This document shows positions 1-10,749 of a DNA stretch of 10,998 nucleotides, piece by piece. Source of the stretch: a virus (lineage: Duplodnaviria; Heunggongvirae; Uroviricota; Caudoviricetes); IMG/VR virus record IMGVR_UViG_3300019867_000001, positions 93,244 to 104,241 of that record; one strand, given 5' to 3'. Within the stretch, counting starts at the first letter, position 1. Every line of letters starts with the position of its first letter. The translations under genes and the position numbers were made by a program. The notes under the pieces were generated by a model that worked only from the letters and a program-made list of their open reading frames with translations, was not told the origin of the DNA and did not search any database.

Positions 1-194
1 GAGTAACCATCATGATTATAATATTGTTTATTTTCAAATTTTACACACCAATATCCTTCAATATTTGGCGAACCTACTATTTGCCCAATCTGTATCCAAT
101 TTCCTGGACTAACTTTCCAATATATTGAACCATTTTTATATTCAATCAATTTAATGAGTTTCAAACCAATTGTTTCCAATCTTACTCTCTCCAT
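1..194 (-). CDS. N-terminal part of a free-standing HNH endonuclease-like ORF overlapping the DNA polymerase 3' end (runs off the window; start 194 or 164)
   Basis: LIEYKNGSIYWKVSPGNWIQIGQIVGSPNIEGYWCVKFENKQYYNH resembles the N-terminal leader of HNH-AP2 endonucleases, including the intron 3 and 4 ORFs. The HNH core is not in the window. Confidence 0.55.
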   Translation of the reverse strand, partial: MERVRLETIGLKLIKLIEYKNGSIYWKVSPGNWIQIGQIVGSPNIEGYWCVKFENKQYYNHDGY

Positions 195-2022
195 TCATGA
201 TACTAATCTTTAAAAGTAAAGGACCATCTTTAAAAGCTTTTTTTGCAATATTTGCTGTTATTTCTGAATATTCTTCAGGAACACCTATTTGTATTTCATC
301 ATGATAAAAGATATATGGTTTATAGGGTATATTTTGTTTTTCTAATTCCTCGACAGTAAGCATTAATGCTATAGCACATGTTGCTTTTTCACAAGCTTGA
401 AGCAAATATACAAGTAATTTATGGAAGCCATCACAATAAATCTTATTACCAGCAATTCCGTAAATATACCCAGGACCAAACTGAGAAGTTTTTGCAAATA
501 CTGCTTCAAGTTTTTCAAGTAAGTCTCTAAATCCTGGTATTGCTTTTAAGAATTCTTTTTTAAATTTCTTTCCAAGTTCATCATCAATTACACTAAATAA
601 GTATGACCAAAGCTTAGGTCCAGACGCACCAAAAAGTGTAGCATATAATATTCTTTTAGATCTGCCTCTAAGATTATCTGGTATTTCGGAAACTTCTAAT
701 TTTTTAAGAATTTTTAAGATTATATCAGCATTACGTTGATGGATATCACCACTAAGTAATTCATTAGTAAATTCTTCTTTATTTAAGTAGTATGCTAGCC
801 CTCGTGCTTGATTTCCTGATGAATCGGCACCTACTATTTTCCATCCAATTTCAGTAATAAATAATTTTCGCATTTCAGAGCCATAAATACTATCTGGTGT
901 AGGTACATTAACTATAACGTTATGTCTTGCGCGCATTGAAGGAGTACCAATAGTGAAACAATCACCATGTAATTTACCATTAGTATCACAATTTTCAATC
1001 CAAGTTTTTAATATTGAAAATCTAGATCTTACAGTTAAAAAATCACAATATAATTTACCATTACCACTTAGCATACCTTCAAGGCTATCTTCTGTAATTT
1101 TTGGTGAGCTTCTTATTTTTTTACCTGTTTCTGGATCAACCTTAAAATTCCATTCAGTTGGTTGCCAACCGTTACGTTCAAGAAAAATCTTAACATCTGT
1201 AACACTATCTATATCTAAATGCTTAAATTCAACTCTACAATATTCACCTTCAATAAGTTGATTTTTATATCCGCCAGTATCTGGATCAATACCAAACCAA
1301 TTGGCGGTATGTATATTATAAGCACCATTTTTATTCCATTTAGGCCATTTAGGTTCTACAACTCCAAGTTTTTTATCTATAGCAACGCATTTGCTTCCAA
1401 GTAATGGAAGTACTTTACTTCTTGTTTCATTCATAATTATTTCTAATTTACTAAATAATTCTTTAGCTTTATTTAGATTAAATGGCCATCCTTCTAATTC
1501 AGCTTGTGCGCAAAATTGTGCTACTGCATGTTCTGCTTTTAAGTAGATTCTTATATTTTCTGTTTTAGCTACTATTGTTTTAAACTCTCTGAGTAAGTAG
1601 TTATAAACTTTTTCTGTTAGAAATAAATCATTCTTGCAATACTCAAGCATTTCTGGGCTATACTGAGTGAAGTCTATAAAGCTACCCTTCGGGAAATCTA
1701 AGAATTCTCCCCAAGAAGCTAAATTATGTGAGTTATCAGAAAAACGCTTGTAGTTTAGTATCTGTGAAAATAACATAGTATCATGTACAGTTACACCTAC
1801 TGGTAACTTATAATTAAAAAGTTTTTTAAGCATGATTAAGTCAAACTGGATTACTCGATGACCAATCACAATTGTAGCTTTATTTAACATATCTTGCCAA
1901 CTTAAATCTCCTTCAAGAAACATATATGTTTGATGTGTCTCTAGATTTAATAAACCTACAATCCAGCAATGAGTTCCTCCTTTTAATAAATCATTAGTTT
2001 CTATATCAAGAATGTATCGCAT
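151..2022 (-). CDS. Family A DNA polymerase with 3'-5' exonuclease, T7 gp5-like, 623 aa
   Basis: Exonuclease motifs DIET, FDL and Y..ND; motif A GADSSG..AR; motif B R-x3-K-x3-Y-x3-FG; motif C YHDEIQ; C-terminal NWFETH; thumb insertion where T7 binds thioredoxin. Confidence 0.95.
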   Translation of the reverse strand: MRYILDIETNDLLKGGTHCWIVGLLNLETHQTYMFLEGDLSWQDMLNKATIVIGHRVIQFDLIMLKKLFNYKLPVGVTVHDTMLFSQILNYKRFSDNSHNLASWGEFLDFPKGSFIDFTQYSPEMLEYCKNDLFLTEKVYNYLLREFKTIVAKTENIRIYLKAEHAVAQFCAQAELEGWPFNLNKAKELFSKLEIIMNETRSKVLPLLGSKCVAIDKKLGVVEPKWPKWNKNGAYNIHTANWFGIDPDTGGYKNQLIEGEYCRVEFKHLDIDSVTDVKIFLERNGWQPTEWNFKVDPETGKKIRSSPKITEDSLEGMLSGNGKLYCDFLTVRSRFSILKTWIENCDTNGKLHGDCFTIGTPSMRARHNVIVNVPTPDSIYGSEMRKLFITEIGWKIVGADSSGNQARGLAYYLNKEEFTNELLSGDIHQRNADIILKILKKLEVSEIPDNLRGRSKRILYATLFGASGPKLWSYLFSVIDDELGKKFKKEFLKAIPGFRDLLEKLEAVFAKTSQFGPGYIYGIAGNKIYCDGFHKLLVYLLQACEKATCAIALMLTVEELEKQNIPYKPYIFYHDEIQIGVPEEYSEITANIAKKAFKDGPLLLKISIMNGESKIGNNWFETH

Positions 2023-4734: not shown

Positions 4735-5051
4735 TTTATATTTCCCCAAAAAGAATATGGGTTATTATCTATTTGTTCCGCAATTACTTTTCTTCCAAAT
4801 ACTTCACCAAGTATAATATGATTAATTAATAGATTATTGGTACTTACTTCATGCATTTGCGAATCATACTCAAAGAAATCTGGAATTGTATAAATTTTAA
4901 GATATACTTCTTTATACATAAAATCTTGGATATCTATGATATCATTTAGATTTTCAGTATTCAAATAATACATATAAATTTTACCAATAAATTTATAATC
5001 ATTAAAAAATTCAACTAAATCTCCATTATACTGTTCAAGTATTGAATACAT
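4731..5051 (-). CDS. Hypothetical protein, 106 aa
   Basis: TAATG overlap with the upstream gene; RBS AAGGA. Confidence 0.65.
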   Translation of the reverse strand: MYSILEQYNGDLVEFFNDYKFIGKIYMYYLNTENLNDIIDIQDFMYKEVYLKIYTIPDFFEYDSQMHEVSTNNLLINHIILGEVFGRKVIAEQIDNNPYSFWGNIK

Positions 5052-5491
5052 TATGGCCTATCCTTATATTCAATTTTTGGCATATAAGGAAATACTATTG
5101 GTACACAACTATCTGAATTTTGAAAGCATGCACCATCTGGATTTCTGAATATAATACCACGGCTATCATAGGCCTGTCCATCAAACCTATCAACTTGTTT
5201 AAATACATGCGAACATCTGATATTTTGATATATAGCAGGATCTATAGTATTATTCCATTCAGAATCTCCACCTGTTAATGGAGTTAATATTTCCCAAGAT
5301 GCTAGTTCCCTAAATAGCTCTATTGCATATGGAGCACTGGAACCTGAATGCCCATGCGTACTAAATATCTTAAGTAATTCAATTATTTGTTTACATAGTA
5401 ACTCTTGCATTTCATCTTCAAATTCATGCTTATCATTCATCCATCCAGCTATTCTAAACTCTCGCCAGGCATGTTCTTCGTATTTACTCAA
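5051..5491 (-). CDS. Conserved phage hypothetical protein (GHSGxSA / LTPLTG / YQN motifs), 146 aa
   Basis: TTG start with RBS GAGGAG. I recognise the motif pattern as a recurring phage family of unknown function (from recall, not searched). Confidence 0.75.
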   Translation of the reverse strand: MSKYEEHAWREFRIAGWMNDKHEFEDEMQELLCKQIIELLKIFSTHGHSGSSAPYAIELFRELASWEILTPLTGGDSEWNNTIDPAIYQNIRCSHVFKQVDRFDGQAYDSRGIIFRNPDGACFQNSDSCVPIVFPYMPKIEYKDRP

Positions 5492-5890: not shown

Positions 5891-6570
5891 TTATGCAAAA
5901 GCATATTCGCTATCTAATATAAGTGAAATATCTAAATTTCCTATATCTACTTTTTTAATATCGCTATTTATATCTTTCATTAATGTATAAAGTGGTTCTG
6001 CTTTATATAAATCTACAAATGTTTCTCGTACAATAACATATAACTCAGACATATCTCCAAGTAAGCATCCAAATGAATCATGAACTGTTGTTACATGAAA
6101 ATTAGCTTTATTTACAATTAGCATCATGTGCGCTGCATCTAAGCTATGTATTGCATTCGGACTTGCACCTTGTGATTGTTTACGTTTTGAAGGTCGTATA
6201 TTTTCTATATAGCAAATATTCATTTGTAATGTATTATTAAGATAACCAGACATACTCCTCTCACCATCTGGTGGACCATATCGAACATATGTTTTCTTAG
6301 TTATGCCCTCTACATAATGCTGAACTACAGGGAATCTAGTAATAGACACAGTCCATGAAAGAAAGGTTCCAATCGATTCCGCTACTTTACCTGCTTCTTC
6401 AAATACTGATAGTAATAACATAGGTCTTTTGAGTGAAACTTTGCAATTGTTGAATACGGTATGTCCAAGATATGAAGCCCATTTATGTTCTAGATTATAA
6501 AGTAGCTCTATGCTATGTTTACGTGCGTCATCAATTATTTGCTGCGTCAAGCCGTAGGCTGTACCTCCAT
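5891..6570 (-). CDS. RNAP exon 5 (GGTAYG through specificity loop, motif C HDSF and C-terminal YAFA)
   Basis: Track ORF 5891..6550 extended 20 nt upstream to the omega-G of intron 4. Confidence 0.93.
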
Positions 6571-9500
6571 CGTTTTGTTGTACTATGCGTTAAATAGTAC
6601 CTGTAATACTTTAAATTAAGAATCTGCAAATTCGCCATACAGTTTCTTACGGTTAATAATAACACATTCATTTGCTTCTTTCGCGGTATCAAATAATCCT
6701 AAATATAACTGTATTCCATTATGACCTAAACGTGCTTGGTATTTACCATTTGGTGTTATAAATACACCTTTAAAACCTGTTGTATTAGTTTTAGGTAATT
6801 TTTTATTTATCTGATTTTGACTTTTTGTTGCTAATCTTAAATTTTCTATTTTATTATTTAATGGATTTCTATCTTTATGATCCACTAAATAACCTTCAGG
6901 TATTGGCCCATTAAACATTTCCCAAATAGTACATGCTAACATATAATTTTTACCTAAATATTCAAATTGAATATAACCACAGCTATTTATCCAGCCTACA
7001 TGTTTATGCTGATTATTTGAGTCTAATCTAATTAATTTACCATTTTCATACTTAAAAATTTCATTCCAATCCATTAATTTATCCTTAATTCTTTAAAGTA
7101 CTACAGCTGCATATTACTATGCAGACCAGACTATATCATAGCTAATTTAATTAGCTGAGGGCGTTTCCAATCTACTTAGATTGTACTTCCTTTCGGAATA
7201 GTCGTTACACCTTCAAATTATAAATCAAGTATACTTTGTATACTAAATTCAAAATAAGCTTGGCTCGGTATTGTCCATGGCGAATGGATGTTCACCGAAT
7301 TAACCCTCTTTTACTTCCGCCTAAAGTGTTAACGGAAGAACCATAACATTCAAAATATTAATAACTATTCGTTAGATAGTTACCAACTTATAATCTTACA
7401 AACTCACCATATCTTTCAATAGCTACTTCACAATATTTTTTATAAGCTTCTTCTGGAGTATCAAAAAAGCCTAAAAATTTATTTTTGCCATCTATTTTAA
7501 TTTGGGAAACCCATTTCTTTTTATGCCAACAGACACCTTTAAACCCACTTTTATTATTAGATTGTTTTGTTCTATTAAAATGATTTTCTTGGAAAGTGCC
7601 TATCCTAAGATTATCAATTCTATTATTATTTCTTATCCTATCTATATGGTCAATAAATAGACCTTCAGGTATTGGTCCGTTAAACATTTCCCAAATTACA
7701 CGGTGAGCGAATAAATATTTTCCATTTAGATAAATACCGACATAACCATCTTTTCTTAATGTTCCTGCTAAACTACCAGCAAGCATTCGGCCAGTATTAT
7801 TGGCCCAAAGTAAGTTACCAGTATAGTTATCATAAATGAAAAGATTATTATAATCTATTAAATTATCCTTAAGATTAAGTTGCTGCATATTACTATGCAG
7901 TTTAGACTATATCATAACTAGTTAAACTAGTTGAGAGCGCTTCGAACAGACTTCTGTTCTACTCCCCGAAGGGATAGTCGTTGCACCTTAAAACAAACTA
8001 AAATAAGGATAATTTTTCCTTATTATAGTAAGTAGTCTTGGCTCAGGATTGACCTATAAGGTTGTTCCCTGAATTCACTCTCTTTTATAAGCGCCATATT
8101 TAACGCTTAATTATCTTACGTCTTTGTACTTTCTCTGTAATACGCATCCAAAATACACTTGAAGCCTTTGCAATCAATTCTTTATTATCTTGTTTAAATT
8201 TTATAATTTCAGCAATTAATATTTTTCTTTTATCAGATTTTAATGGACATTCATTTATTTGATTTTTATAATAAATTAAGTTATCAATTAAATTATCGCA
8301 ATCTATTATTTCTTGCTTGGTAAGTAAATTATAATCTTTTTCTATTACTGCCCATACATTATCAGCGACATATGAATATAAATCACCAGGTAAATCTTGC
8401 GGAACTAAATTAACTAATGGCGCTGTTATTTCATCTCTTGATAATGCGGCTAAATGCTGTGACATTAATGTTAAATGGAATCGTTAGTTCCATTTTGCTA
8501 TGATACATTCTTTCCAAATTTCTTTCATTTTATTCCTTAAAATAACGCCAATTATTTAAGGTATCATAGCAACTATATATTACTATATAGATCAGACTAT
8601 CTCTTCAAGTAATAAGTATTTATTACTTGCTGTGCGCTTCCCAAGGACTTCCTTGGTACTTCCTTTCGGAATAGTCGTTACACCCGATTAAACTTGGCTC
8701 GGTATTGTCCTTAGCTTTACCTATTAGGAGTTTCACCGAATTCACACAGTTTTAAAATGGCAACTTTACCATTTGTGCTGCCGTCAATAGATACTTCAAT
8801 ATGAGACACATACTCATATAAATCATTACCTTGTGCTTCCCATTCTCGTGCTTTTTTTAATTCAAAACAAGCAGCTAAAAATTGCCAAGGTTTCGCTGCT
8901 TGCATCCAGCCTTGATTTACTTTTGGATTCTCAGCATAACTTAGAAGTATCTCCTCATTGTCAAGTGACCAATAAACTCTATCATTTAATGGTATTTTAT
9001 CTGTACTGAATCCATTTGAATCACCAGCCCAATTATTAGCAATACTAATCATAAGCCAGAAAAATCCTTGTTGTTCTATTATTTTACTATCTGCTCTTAA
9101 TAAGAGACCTCTTGCAAGATCTGGTCCCATCTCGCTTAAGAAAGCAGTAGCGGGGTATCTACGGCCTCTGAAATCGAGATAATAAAGCATTATGTTCAAT
9201 ACTATTCGTTAAATAGTATTCTGTTAAAGTTTAATATGAGACCAATTACGACCAGTACGAATACAATTAATAGTACCAGGATGAACATTAAAAATTTTAG
9301 CTATTTCCCTATTAGAACATCCAAGTTGAATAAGCTTTTTAATTTCAATAACACTAATATCATTCAATTTACTATTTATTGCAGTTTCGCCTCTAGTCAT
9401 AAGCCCATGCTCTTTAGCATGTTGTACATTTTCAAGTTGTGTACACCATTCCAAATTAATAACATTATTATTTCTTTTATTTAAATCCTTATGGTTTACT

Positions 9501-10749
9501 TTTGGTAATTTATTAGGATTTTCTATAAAAGCTAATGCTACTAATCTATGGACTCTTTCGGATTTGTTTATACCATTATGGCAGAGTGAAACTTGAAGAT
9601 AGCCATGCCCATTATCAAACTGCTTCAAGATACGGCCTTCTTTAATATAAACTCCACCATATGTACTATAGACCTCTTTCGTCTTACTTTTAACATTTCC
9701 GAAAGTTGATACTTCATATTGTTCATTTATATCTTTCCAGATTTCCATTATATTCTCCGAATATAAACAGCTATACGTTACCGTATAGATCAGACTATAT
9801 TATAATTAATTCCATAATTCCCTGCGCTTCCACCGGACTTCCGATGTACTCTACTAAGTTCTTAATCGCATCCGCGATAGCTTTTCGATAGTCGTTGCAC
9901 TTTACTTTACAAATTTTGTAAAGTCTAGCTCAGAATTGACCTTGTAAGGTTATTTTCTGAATTCACAGGGTTTACTACCACCTAAAATTAATGGTAGAAT
10001 ACTTGTCCTAAATATCTTCCAGCTATATCTCCTACAGCCGTAGTTTCTCTAAGCTTACTAGTTCTAGATTCTAAGTTTCTGATATCCCAAATATCTTTAA
10101 AAGCATCTGTTTTATTTCTAAGTGCCCATAAGTATATTTCATATATTGGTTCATTAATCATCCACCCAACATGTTGTGCTTTATTAACACAATTAAAAAT
10201 TAAAGGATGAGTTTGCGGCGTTATTTTATTTAGGACATCGCGATTTGAAGTTTTTACAAGTAATAAACCTGTTTCATGTTTTGTAGATATCCAATCTGCA
10301 TAAGGGGCAATAACAGGTAATTTTTCAGTTGAGCCAATTTTTAAAGTTTCCCATAATCTGCACAGTTTATTATCATCTAGTATATTAATTAGATATGCAG
10401 CATGACCATTTGTTGAACGTCCAAGTTCTACTTTTAAAATTCCAAATAATTCAAAAGTATAAAGTATAAAAGCACCTGCTTTTGCTGCAATTGCAGAGTC
10501 ACGTTTTAATTTATATTTTTTACGGATTAAATGCCCAATAGCACAAATTACTTCGCTCATTAATACTATTTGCTTATTATTACCTTTTCCTCTACGAGTA
10601 TACAGGTATAGTATTTGTATTGAAAGATTAATTATATCTTCATAATTAATCTCTGGTATTAACAGAAATTTAACGGGATTTTGTGGTACAATTTCTGTTT
10701 CACAACGATAGATCAGAGAAGCGATTAATTTTTGTTTCATCGTCTCCAT
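5891..10749 (-). CDS. T7-type single-subunit DNA-dependent RNA polymerase, spliced; join(complement 9991..10749, 8768..9187, 8103..8462, 7332..7350, 5891..6570), 745 aa
   Basis: Exons total 2238 nt = 746 codons with no internal stop. The joins rebuild FYH|LYYLDFRGRRYP (DxxGR), IDGSTNG|SQHLAAL (motif A), RRKIIKR|NVMVLPY|GGTAYG (motif B: R-x3-K-x7-YG), then PNAIHSLDAAH, VHDSF (motif C) and a C-terminal YAFA like T7 FAFA. RBS AAGGA precedes ATG 10749. Confidence 0.95.
6571..7331 (-). mobile_element. Group I intron 4 (761 nt) with HNH-AP2 ORF
   Basis: P1: CUUCCGU/GCGGAAG. P3: GAGGGU/GCCCUC. P7: GACUAU/AUAGUC. P9: CUGCAU-AGUAAU-AUGCAG. A 15-bp P9.1 stem CUGUAGUACUUUAAA/UUUAAAGUAUUACAG encloses the ORF. 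P9.2 has a UAACG loop. Omega-G at 6571 splits the Tyr codon T|AT. Confidence 0.92.
6616..7074 (-). CDS. Intron-encoded HNH-AP2 homing endonuclease, 152 aa
   Basis: WEMFNGPIPEGYLVDHKDRNPLNNKIENLRLAT (HNH) and TGFKGV..KYQARL..YLGLFDTAKEA..YGEF (AP2). RBS TAAGGA precedes the ATG. A 36-nt stretch matches the intron 3 ORF with 2 mismatches. Confidence 0.9.
   Translation of the reverse strand: MDWNEIFKYENGKLIRLDSNNQHKHVGWINSCGYIQFEYLGKNYMLACTIWEMFNGPIPEGYLVDHKDRNPLNNKIENLRLATKSQNQINKKLPKTNTTGFKGVFITPNGKYQARLGHNGIQLYLGLFDTAKEANECVIINRKKLYGEFADS
7332..7350 (-). CDS. RNAP exon 4, 19-nt micro-exon (NVMVLP plus first base of the catalytic Tyr codon)
   Basis: AATGTTATGGTTCTTCCGT is the only segment that restores frame and motif B between introns 3 and 4. 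It is not in the ORF track. Confidence 0.88.
7351..8102 (-). mobile_element. Group I intron 3 (752 nt) with HNH-AP2 ORF
   Basis: P1: UAAGCGU/GCGCUUA. P3: GAGAGUG/CGCUCUC. P7: GACUAU/AUAGUC. P9: CUGCAU-AGUAAU-AUGCAG. P9.2 has a UAACG loop. About 5 bp of P10 form between the guide and exon AUGUU. Omega-G at 7351. Confidence 0.9.
7388..7858 (-). CDS. Intron-encoded HNH-AP2 homing endonuclease; the SD-aligned start codon is ATA (7858)
   Basis: AHRVIWEMFNGPIPEG..IDHIDRIRNNNRIDNLR (HNH) and SGFKGV..WVSQI..LGFFDTPEEA..YGEF (AP2). The track start at 7888 lies inside the P9 stem with no RBS. Confidence 0.85.
   Translation of the reverse strand: MDYNNLFIYDNYTGNLLWANNTGRMLAGSLAGTLRKDGYVGIYLNGKYLFAHRVIWEMFNGPIPEGLFIDHIDRIRNNNRIDNLRIGTFQENHFNRTKQSNNKSGFKGVCWHKKKWVSQIKIDGKNKFLGFFDTPEEAYKKYCEVAIERYGEFVRL
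8103..8462 (-). CDS. RNAP exon 3 (120 codons; SQHLAAL through motif B R-x3-K)
   Basis: Track ORF 8100..8465, whose ATG is really the intron 2 terminal AUG and whose TAA is the start of intron 3. Confidence 0.92.
8463..8767 (-). mobile_element. Group I intron 2 (305 nt), ORF-less apart from an endonuclease remnant
   Basis: P1: AAAUGGU/GCCAUUU. P3: CUGUGUG/CGCACAG. P7: GACUAU/AUAGUC. P9: CUAUAU-AGUAAU-AUAUAG. 12-bp P9.1 stem. P9.2: AAAUGGAA-CUAACGA-UUCCAUUU. Ends AACAUUAAUG. Splicing gives DGSTNG-S-QH, the spacing expected for motif A. Confidence 0.92.
8484..8528 (-). pseudogene. Remnant of a NUMOD4-type homing endonuclease gene (minigene MKEIWKECIIAKWN)
   Basis: TAAGGAATAAA-ATG AAA GAA ATT TGG AAA GAA TGT lies in the same intron position as the other endonuclease ORFs. 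MKEIWKE matches the MEIWKD start of the intron 1 enzyme. Confidence 0.75.
8768..9187 (-). CDS. RNAP exon 2 (140 codons; DFRGR through motif A DGSTNG)
   Basis: Central part of track ORF 8717..9199, bounded by omega-G 9188 and the P1 U.G at 8768. Confidence 0.92.
9188..9990 (-). mobile_element. Group I intron 1 (803 nt, IA2/td-like) with NUMOD4-HNH ORF downstream of P9
   Basis: P1: exon CUACCAU / intron GUGGUAG with U.G at the splice site. P3: CCCUGUG/CGCAGGG. P7: GACUAU/AUAGUC. P9: CUAUAC-GGUAAC-GUAUAG. P9.2: AAUACUAUU-UAACG-AAUAGUAUU. Ends GAACAUAAUG (omega-G at 9188). Splicing restores the frame. Confidence 0.93.
9224..9748 (-). CDS. Intron-encoded homing endonuclease, NUMOD4-HNH with C-terminal HTH (I-HmuI-like), 174 aa
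   Basis: MEIWKDI..YEVSTFGNVKS (NUMOD4), VHRLVALAF..VNHKDLNKRNNNVINLEWCTQLENVQH (HNH), SNREIAKIFNVHPGTINCI (HTH). RBS GGAG precedes the ATG. Confidence 0.92.
   Translation of the reverse strand: MEIWKDINEQYEVSTFGNVKSKTKEVYSTYGGVYIKEGRILKQFDNGHGYLQVSLCHNGINKSERVHRLVALAFIENPNKLPKVNHKDLNKRNNNVINLEWCTQLENVQHAKEHGLMTRGETAINSKLNDISVIEIKKLIQLGCSNREIAKIFNVHPGTINCIRTGRNWSHIKL
9991..10749 (-). CDS. RNAP exon 1 (253 codons; short N-terminal domain and start of polymerase domain)
   Basis: ORF 9988..10749 ends ...GQVFYH-TAA. The TAA is the first three intron bases after the P1 U.G pair. VNKAQHVGWMIN resembles T7 INIAQNTAWKIN. Confidence 0.92.

Follow-up and report, generated by a model that had tools for sequence, protein, structure and literature searches.

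The window analyzed here is a 10,998-nucleotide (nt) stretch of a tailed phage genome (IMG/VR record IMGVR_UViG_3300019867_000001, positions 93,244 to 104,241), in which all long reading frames lie on the minus strand. Its segment 10749..5891 (minus strand) is identified by its sequence as one gene for a T7-type single-subunit RNA polymerase (RNAP), and this gene very probably carries four separate group I introns that would be spliced out to give the messenger RNA (mRNA) of an intact polymerase. The structure of the gene, membership in the ribozyme family, covariation, and the presence or absence of introns at the same sites in relatives are all directly observed, and splicing is predicted from them. 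The locus is composed of five polymerase stretches, between which there are three open reading frames (ORFs) for HNH proteins and one 305-nt stretch with no long ORF. Five exons of 759, 420, 360, 19, and 680 nt alternate with introns of 803, 305, 752, and 761 nt, the latter amounting to 2621 of the 4859 nt (53.9%). Scripted joining of the exon sequences gave a 2238-nt open frame for a protein of 745 residues with the catalytic residues D388, K512, Y520, and D684. An earlier sequence-only reading of this DNA had proposed the same strand and coordinates, four introns taking up 2621 of 4859 nt (54%), and an intact 745-residue RNAP with these four residues after intron removal; each of these points was reproduced, the last one in the joined frame.

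The exons, all on the minus strand, divide the polymerase as follows. Exon 1 (9991..10749) holds 253 codons and ends with ...FYH, its last base being U; tblastn with the spliced protein spanned residues 1-253 in it. Exon 2 (8768..9187, 140 codons) runs from LYYLDFRGR to motif A, SIDGSTNG, which contains D388, and exon 3 (8103..8462, 120 codons) from SQHLAALSRDE to RRKIIKR, with K512. Exon 4 (7332..7350) is a micro-exon of 19 nt from the centre of motif B that codes for NVMVLP and contributes one base, the first, to the codon for Tyr520. Exon 5 (5891..6570) opens with the other two, followed by 225 codons, including motif C, HDSFG, with D684, and a stop. Thus, in the spliced product D388 stands in SIDGS, K512 and Y520 in RRKIIKRNVMVLPYG, and D684 in HDSFG; we take these residues to be the equivalents of D537, K631, Y639, and D812 of the T7 enzyme (motifs A, B, and C). 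The introns, also on the minus strand, are intron 1 (9188..9990, 803 nt), intron 2 (8463..8767, 305 nt), intron 3 (7351..8102, 752 nt), and intron 4 (6571..7331, 761 nt). Their insertion sites, numbered 1 to 4, lie before DFRGR (site 1), in motif A five residues past the catalytic Asp (site 2), and in motif B, where sites 3 and 4 flank six codons between the Lys and the Tyr.

The identity of the protein was supported by both domain matches and whole-length homologues. Exons 2, 3, and 5 matched PF00940 in Pfam with E-values of 2e-20, 1.7e-9, and 1.1e-25, respectively, and the matched profile positions followed one another in order (3-96, 98-141, and 169-374). The spliced protein was 58-65% identical over 738-745 residues to ten uninterrupted metagenomic homologues of 742-769 residues, with which it was collinear, and the alignment was free of gaps at all four joins (marked here by a slash): FYH/LYY, DGSxNG/SQH, KR/NVM, and xxP/YGG, the last two forming the continuous KR/NVMxxP/YGG. 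The assignment to the T7-type single-subunit family made in the sequence-only reading thus held, and the intron-free alleles that it had suggested looking for were found. Exon 5 was 56-69% identical to the homologues listed for it. The contigs carrying the homologues reached up to 97 kb, with one of 155 kb. Among cultured phages, the nearest RNAP relatives were those of roseophages DSS3_PM1 and DSS3_VP1 (37% identity), and megablast of the locus against cultured phages returned short matches only, situated in intron and endonuclease sequence. The prediction that gene callers would split the polymerase was also borne out, since fragments of 219 and 121 residues from the window itself are filed as separate proteins.

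The homologues also decided the position of the 3' splice site of intron 1. An alternative terminal G at 9197, 9 nt upstream and in frame, would have given a protein of 748 residues and 2612 nt of intron; it was rejected, as it inserts the residues NIM relative to the ten homologues. We adopted G9188, the site chosen in the sequence-only reading, because this three-residue insertion then disappears with respect to all ten. With G9188, the tail of intron 1 after its last hairpin (AACAUAAUG) is the same as that of intron 2 (AACAUUAAUG).

At the RNA level, each of the four interruptions contains a group I ribozyme core. When stretches of 240-350 nt from the 5' part of each intron were compared with the Rfam group I model RF00028, full-model matches (1-253) were obtained for introns 1 to 4 with scores of 68.4, 78.2, 78.4, and 63.9 bits (gathering score 50) and E-values of 1.1e-17, 2e-20, 1.2e-20, and 3e-16. 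All four thus lay above the gathering score in the very model check that the sequence-only reading had suggested for its group I assignment. Other features named there, namely a P1 with a U.G pair, covarying P3 and P9, a UAACG-looped terminal hairpin, and a terminal (omega) G, were recovered as well. P1 and the omega-G are seen directly in the sequence: P1 is a helix of 6-7 base pairs formed by the end of the exon with a guide sequence located 7-12 nt inside the intron (CUACCAU/GUGGUAG, AAUGGU/GCCAUU, AAGCGU/GCGCUU, and CUUCCGU/GCGGAAG in introns 1 to 4) and always ends in U.G, and the terminal G is located at 9188, 8463, 7351, and 6571, positions that restore the frame and match the homologues. 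The cores from P1 to P9 occupy 9990..9771 in intron 1, 8102..7883 in intron 3, and 7331..7107 in intron 4. Close to the 3' end, all four introns form a hairpin with a common UAACG loop on differing stems (z-scores from -3.0 to -4.5, with -4.45 for intron 1), which is followed by 6-10 nt and the terminal G.

Covariation was assessed by folding an alignment of the four RNAP introns and six other introns of the same genome (n = 10) with RNAalifold. In these ten introns, 22 of the 33 predicted pairs were kept through changes on both sides, the covarying helices being P3, P4, P5, P7.2, and P9; single positions of P3 appear as CG, UA, GC, and AU, and not one P3 or P4 pair is broken. The P7 strands, GACUA...UAGUC, are present in every intron and align to P7 of the model; they give no covariation signal because they are invariant in all ten, and P7 is not drawn by RNAalifold because P3 and P7 form a pseudoknot. 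The group I features taken together go far beyond chance. The insert between GACUA and GAAGCGC folds in introns 2-4 into two hairpins, e.g., UUCCGAAAGGAA and CCAAGGAAGUCCUUGG, which correspond to P7.1 and P7.2, and intron 1 has a longer insertion at this place. A P7.1 and a P7.2 located after the 5' strand of P7 and before the 3' strand of P3 are the hallmark of subgroup IA2, which includes the T4 introns; we therefore assign the four introns by their predicted folds to the phage IA2 type with the extra P7.1/P7.2 of T4 nrdB.

Comparison of the cores (within 7107-10001, minus strand) revealed an only partly mosaic pattern of resemblances. Introns 3 and 4 are most alike in every core segment (60%, 70%, and 84%); P4 (UCGGU) and P7.1 (UUCCGAAAGGAA) are common to introns 2 and 4, and a CUAUA-type P9 to introns 1 and 2. 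The sequences thus show signs of an exchange of modules between introns. Furthermore, the intron 4 core (7097-7276) is matched by contigs of two other runs, one from freshwater sediment and one from soil; their likeness ends precisely at 7097, the start of the endonuclease region, which indicates that the ribozyme module of intron 4 occurs elsewhere with a different insert.

In the mechanism that we propose, the whole gene would be transcribed as one precursor, in which each ribozyme would fold, bind guanosine in P7, and cut after the U of the P1 U.G pair. The exons would then be joined past the terminal G, and four such reactions would give the mRNA for the intact polymerase. The 19-nt exon would serve both of its neighbours, as P10 for intron 3 and as P1 for intron 4. 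Its bases 13-19 make up the P1 of intron 4, and its bases 2-6 (AUGUU) can pair with AAUAU adjoining the P1 strand of intron 3 in the guide region, a pairing that is a plausible P10 of that intron. Skipping of exon 4 would shift the frame because 19 is not a multiple of three.

Three of the introns harbor endonuclease genes (all on the minus strand), each placed between P9 and the terminal hairpin. The intron 1 gene (9224..9748) encodes 174 residues with NUMOD4 (2.9e-10), HNH_3 (2.3e-5), and HTH_38 (2.5e-6) matches in Pfam, and its product matches I-HmuI (PDB 1U3E) with an E-value of 2.9e-12; a second match to 1U3E among the intron endonucleases had an E-value of 3.7e-4. The intron 3 gene (7388..7888, 166 residues as listed) shows HNH_3 (9.5e-21) and AP2 (7.4e-7), and that of intron 4 (6616..7074, 152 residues) HNH_3 (2.1e-19) and an AP2-like tail. 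Two of the three have clear ribosome-binding sites, GGAG 8 nt before the ATG in intron 1 and AAGGA 8 nt before the ATG in intron 4. The endonucleases of introns 3 and 4 are 38% identical in an alignment that begins at residue 11 of the intron 3 protein, which identifies them as paralogues at the sequence level. At the start of the intron 3 gene (7860-7888), an ATA aligns with the ATG of the paralogue, and the sole in-frame ATG upstream lies within the P9 hairpin; this arrangement could mean a translation controlled by RNA structure or, alternatively, a gene that is starting to decay. Intron 2 has no endonuclease gene. It contains AAGGA and an ATG with 14 codons (MKEIWKE...) resembling the start of the intron 1 protein, and 27 nt spanning this ribosome-binding site and the first codons recur exactly in Enterococcus phages, within sequence annotated as HNH endonuclease genes. 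In a relative, L007, the intron 9 nt upstream of site 2 carries an intact NUMOD4-HNH gene of 186 residues. The stub in intron 2 looks like the remnant of a deleted NUMOD4-HNH gene, so that intron 2 would have lost its endonuclease gene and three introns would have retained theirs. From their domains, we infer that the three HNH proteins are active in homing: they would cut intron-free alleles in a mixed infection, and the introns would be copied in by repair. Because homing by HNH proteins would proceed by such cutting and repair copying, introns are expected in or beside the most conserved coding sequence, which is where the four are located.

Several points weigh against the spliced-gene reading. 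Splicing is a prediction from the sequence, and some of the four introns may splice inefficiently; among the sequencing runs listed as containing this DNA, none was of RNA. A Rfam scan of the whole window with E-values up to 1 returned no match, and a genome-wide search with RF00028 did not recover intron 4; the whole-window miss fits an effect of the speed filter and shows that the models are not sensitive here. A blank scan of a long stretch is not evidence in this case because the intron matches appear only with short stretches. The P10 of intron 1 is weak (2-4 base pairs), and because of this its 3' site rests on the homologue alignment and on the likeness of its tail to that of intron 2. 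Moreover, the two ribozymes sharing the 19-nt exon could interfere with each other, and the intron 3 endonuclease, given its ATA start, may be poorly translated or starting to decay.

Of three alternatives, the first is that at least one intron no longer splices, the RNAP gene is a pseudogene, and a second RNAP or the host enzyme transcribes in its place. Splicing is a prediction here, some decay of the mobile parts is visible in the lost ATG of the intron 3 endonuclease and the lost endonuclease gene of intron 2, and a second, very divergent T7-type RNAP region is found in the genome. However, no stop or frameshift interrupts any of the five exons, every catalytic residue is kept, compensatory changes preserve the helices with no broken P3 or P4 pairs, and P1 and the terminal G are intact in four of four introns. 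Loss of an endonuclease with retention of the ribozyme is, in turn, the expected course for an intron that still needs to splice. We thus regard a decaying gene as improbable. Even less credit is due to a gene in pieces, the fragments of which would be translated separately and assemble without splicing, like the split NrdA of Aeh1 or the heterodimeric N4 RNAP II. Gene callers do yield separate fragments, and split yet functional phage enzymes are among the work cited in PMC5418858; against this, a complete group I core above the Rfam threshold is found in every interruption, and the frame is restored exactly once the introns are taken out. Exon 4, with its 19 nt, cannot be translated on its own, exons 2, 3, and 5 begin in the middle of motifs with neither a start codon nor a ribosome-binding site at the junction, and intron 2 splits motif A even though it has no endonuclease gene. 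Finally, a chimera in which the assembler joined intron-like pieces of different phages, conceivable for a record that was assembled from a metagenome and whose intron cores contain short stretches shared with other phages of the same habitats (cf. the loose ends at 7097), may be dismissed almost entirely, since introns at the same codon positions recur in relatives from unrelated samples and contigs from a second sample show zero differences. These contigs come from a soil sample of another study, and one of them corresponds to 6828-8503, from within intron 4 through exon 4, intron 3, and exon 3 to a point inside intron 2; because they are identical across it, an assembly artefact does not explain the arrangement. 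In the contigs of four DNA runs over the locus there were no intron-free joints, and relatives in two of these runs cover parts of it only.

A polymerase with four introns that are removed from its precursor thus remains by far the best account of the locus, and the relatives place it in a wider setting. The RNAP clade comprised 286 clusters among longer proteins and 207 among shorter ones above the thresholds used. Full-length proteins made up 104 of the 240 relatives listed, and many others were C-terminal pieces starting at a junction: at MNVMTLPYGG or MTLPYGG (site 3), after YGG (site 4), at about SNNGSQH (near site 2), or at LYYxDFRGR (site 1). Counts of such pieces are rough, as some were cut by contig ends. 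Stand-alone pieces of exon 3 were found in only two clusters besides that of the window. On long contigs, a sole interruption occurred near site 1 in L001 and two others, at site 3 in L004, and at site 4 in L005 and L006. The site 3 (KR/NVM) intron of L004 is 66% identical to intron 3 over 713 nt, and the site 4 intron of L006 is 68% identical to intron 4 over 714 nt, the endonuclease gene being included in both cases; that of L005 is an internally shortened copy. In many other relatives the sites are empty. In L007 and L008 the gene has two introns, of which the first follows DG near motif A and the second occupies site 3. In L009 an intron is found at another position, past YG. A search of viral contigs with exon 5 gave no confirmed relative.

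The motif A intron common in the relatives is inserted after DG, 9 nt upstream of that of the window, which is inserted after NG, and both follow ...AUGGU. Their guides differ in the matching base: GCCAUU facing AAUGGU in the window (8768-8780) versus GCCAUC facing GAUGGU in the relatives (L007:815-830). On these sequences, the motif A intron may have moved to a neighbouring look-alike site. In total, there are at least six insertion positions in the clade, namely sites 1, 3, and 4, the position 9 nt upstream of site 2, site 2 itself, and that past YG in L009. As there are several positions, each of which may be occupied or empty, the pattern is the one that mobile introns produce. Judging from these alleles, introns are common in this RNAP clade and four in one gene look rare among the reachable data, because the relatives, which have similar introns at three of the four sites of the window and at three further positions, usually carry one intron per gene.

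The polymerase locus belongs to a genome represented by a single record of 104,241 bp, which is rated complete and derives from an uncultured tailed phage from soil. Six further RF00028 matches above the threshold lie outside the window, five at 37842-42959 and one at 54114-54402, so that, with intron 4 added to the search matches, the genome contains at least 10 group I introns. The five at 37.8-43 kb lie in the second, very divergent PF00940 region, which gives weak polymerase matches, and both T7-type polymerase genes of this phage are packed with introns (at least nine together). Two of the outside introns, 39918-40182 and 40256-40566, are about 70 nt apart. The second RNAP gene was not found by tblastn with the spliced protein against its own genome, being too divergent and seen weakly with PF00940. 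We also considered a transfer of introns between the two RNAP paralogues at equivalent sites; this idea was dropped because the introns of the second region lie at different codon positions.

Downstream of the RNAP gene, the window contains small genes, genes for Tad3-like, DUF3310, and deoxyribosyltransferase-like proteins, and a family A DNA polymerase gene, and the core of this order (RNAP, small genes, and then family A DNA polymerase) is common to the relatives. Some 400 nt past the end of the RNAP gene and separated from it by a single small ORF, an ORF of 146 residues (5051-5491, minus strand) matches PF25185 (Tad3) with an E-value of 9.7e-34 and 116 bits. Going by this match, it is likely an anti-defence gene in the early region, Tad3 being an inhibitor of the type I Thoeris defence. 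The family A DNA polymerase gene (151-2022, minus strand, 623 residues) is uninterrupted, although genes for DNA polymerase are where introns usually lie in other phages. In the relative L004, an HNH gene overlaps the end of this polymerase gene.

The findings have several implications. With four introns making up 54% of its locus, the T7-type single-subunit RNAP joins the phage genes colonised by group I introns, and in a large clade of uncultured phages of 70-104 kb its gene is an intron hot spot. Because gene callers report fragments, such genes will be miscounted or overlooked in surveys of phage polymerases. The 19-nt exon between two ribozymes offers a compact natural test case for exon sharing and exon skipping, and the occupied and empty alleles of the relatives are ready substrates for studying endonuclease specificity at motifs A and B. 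A more speculative idea, to which we give a rather low probability, is that the intron load goes beyond passive parasitism, with the endonucleases acting as weapons and the ordered ribozymes around the shared exon as a timer of the transcription switch. If this were true, related phages without introns would have their polymerase genes disabled by the HNH endonucleases in a co-infection (cf. PhiPA3 versus PhiKZ below), and the output of polymerase would depend on RNA folding and on the supply of guanosine.

As to novelty, the sequence-only reading had known of no T7-type RNAP with multiple introns. In support of this, the literature search found no paper describing introns in a T7-type single-subunit RNAP gene, which is weak evidence, as the coverage of subscription journals was sparse; the claim has to be narrowed, however, since single-intron relatives are common in metagenomes and two-intron ones exist.

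Group I introns bearing HNH genes are well known from essential phage genes, such as td, nrdB, and nrdD of T4 and the DNA polymerase gene of SPO1, and the T4 introns self-splice. The introns of T4 nrdB, td, and nrdD (sunY) have the same P1-P9 plus P7.1/P7.2 architecture as those described here and are likewise inserted in the conserved catalytic region of an essential enzyme gene. In line with this likeness, a piece of intron 4 (7103-7138) has 97-100% identity over 33-36 nt with the intron region found in the split nrdB genes of T4-like phages, and 99 nt of intron 2 match, at 81%, the sequence in the gap by which a ribonucleotide reductase gene is split in a Rhizobium phage. In contrast to T4, the host gene is a T7-type RNAP and not one of nucleotide metabolism, it has four introns instead of one, and the endonucleases are of the HNH type and placed between P9 and the terminal hairpin. 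The closest counterpart of the intron 1 endonuclease is I-HmuI, the HNH nicking enzyme of the SPO1 DNA polymerase intron (1U3E), with the same size of 174 residues and the same NUMOD4-HNH-HTH layout; the target gene differs, and the match extends over the HNH core. Several group I introns in one essential phage gene, some with HNH genes, are also found in Twort, whose orf142 has three, and in the Bastillevirinae, with up to three in DNA polymerase and terminase genes (PMC11878797), and exon skipping appears in the title of a Twort paper (PMC11878797, ref. 34). However, these genes have at most three introns and none is an RNAP gene, whereas the present one has four together with a 19-nt exon. 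Introns have been reported in the multisubunit RNAP genes of PhiPA3 and AR9 (PMC11878797, PMC7886860), and, as summarized in PMC11878797, the PhiPA3 intron endonuclease damages the RNAP gene of co-infecting PhiKZ. PhiPA3 thus also has an HNH-encoding intron in a phage RNAP gene, but the enzyme is multisubunit and the intron single. The similarly uncultured and intron-rich crAss-like phages have genomes with as many as 14 group I introns; one capsid gene is broken into five fragments, three of the four gaps between them show intron-type domains, and RNAP subunit genes are disrupted as well (PMC7886860, Yutin et al. 2021). Their RNAP, however, belongs to a different, multisubunit-like family with a DxDxD motif, and their introns were recognised via protein domains, whereas the four ribozymes described here are defined at the RNA level with junctions fixed to the base. 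Because intron-dense phage genes have already been published for crAss-like phages and Twort, the RNAP locus does not add a new kind of element; what is new is the host gene family, in which the accumulation of group I introns is unusually dense.

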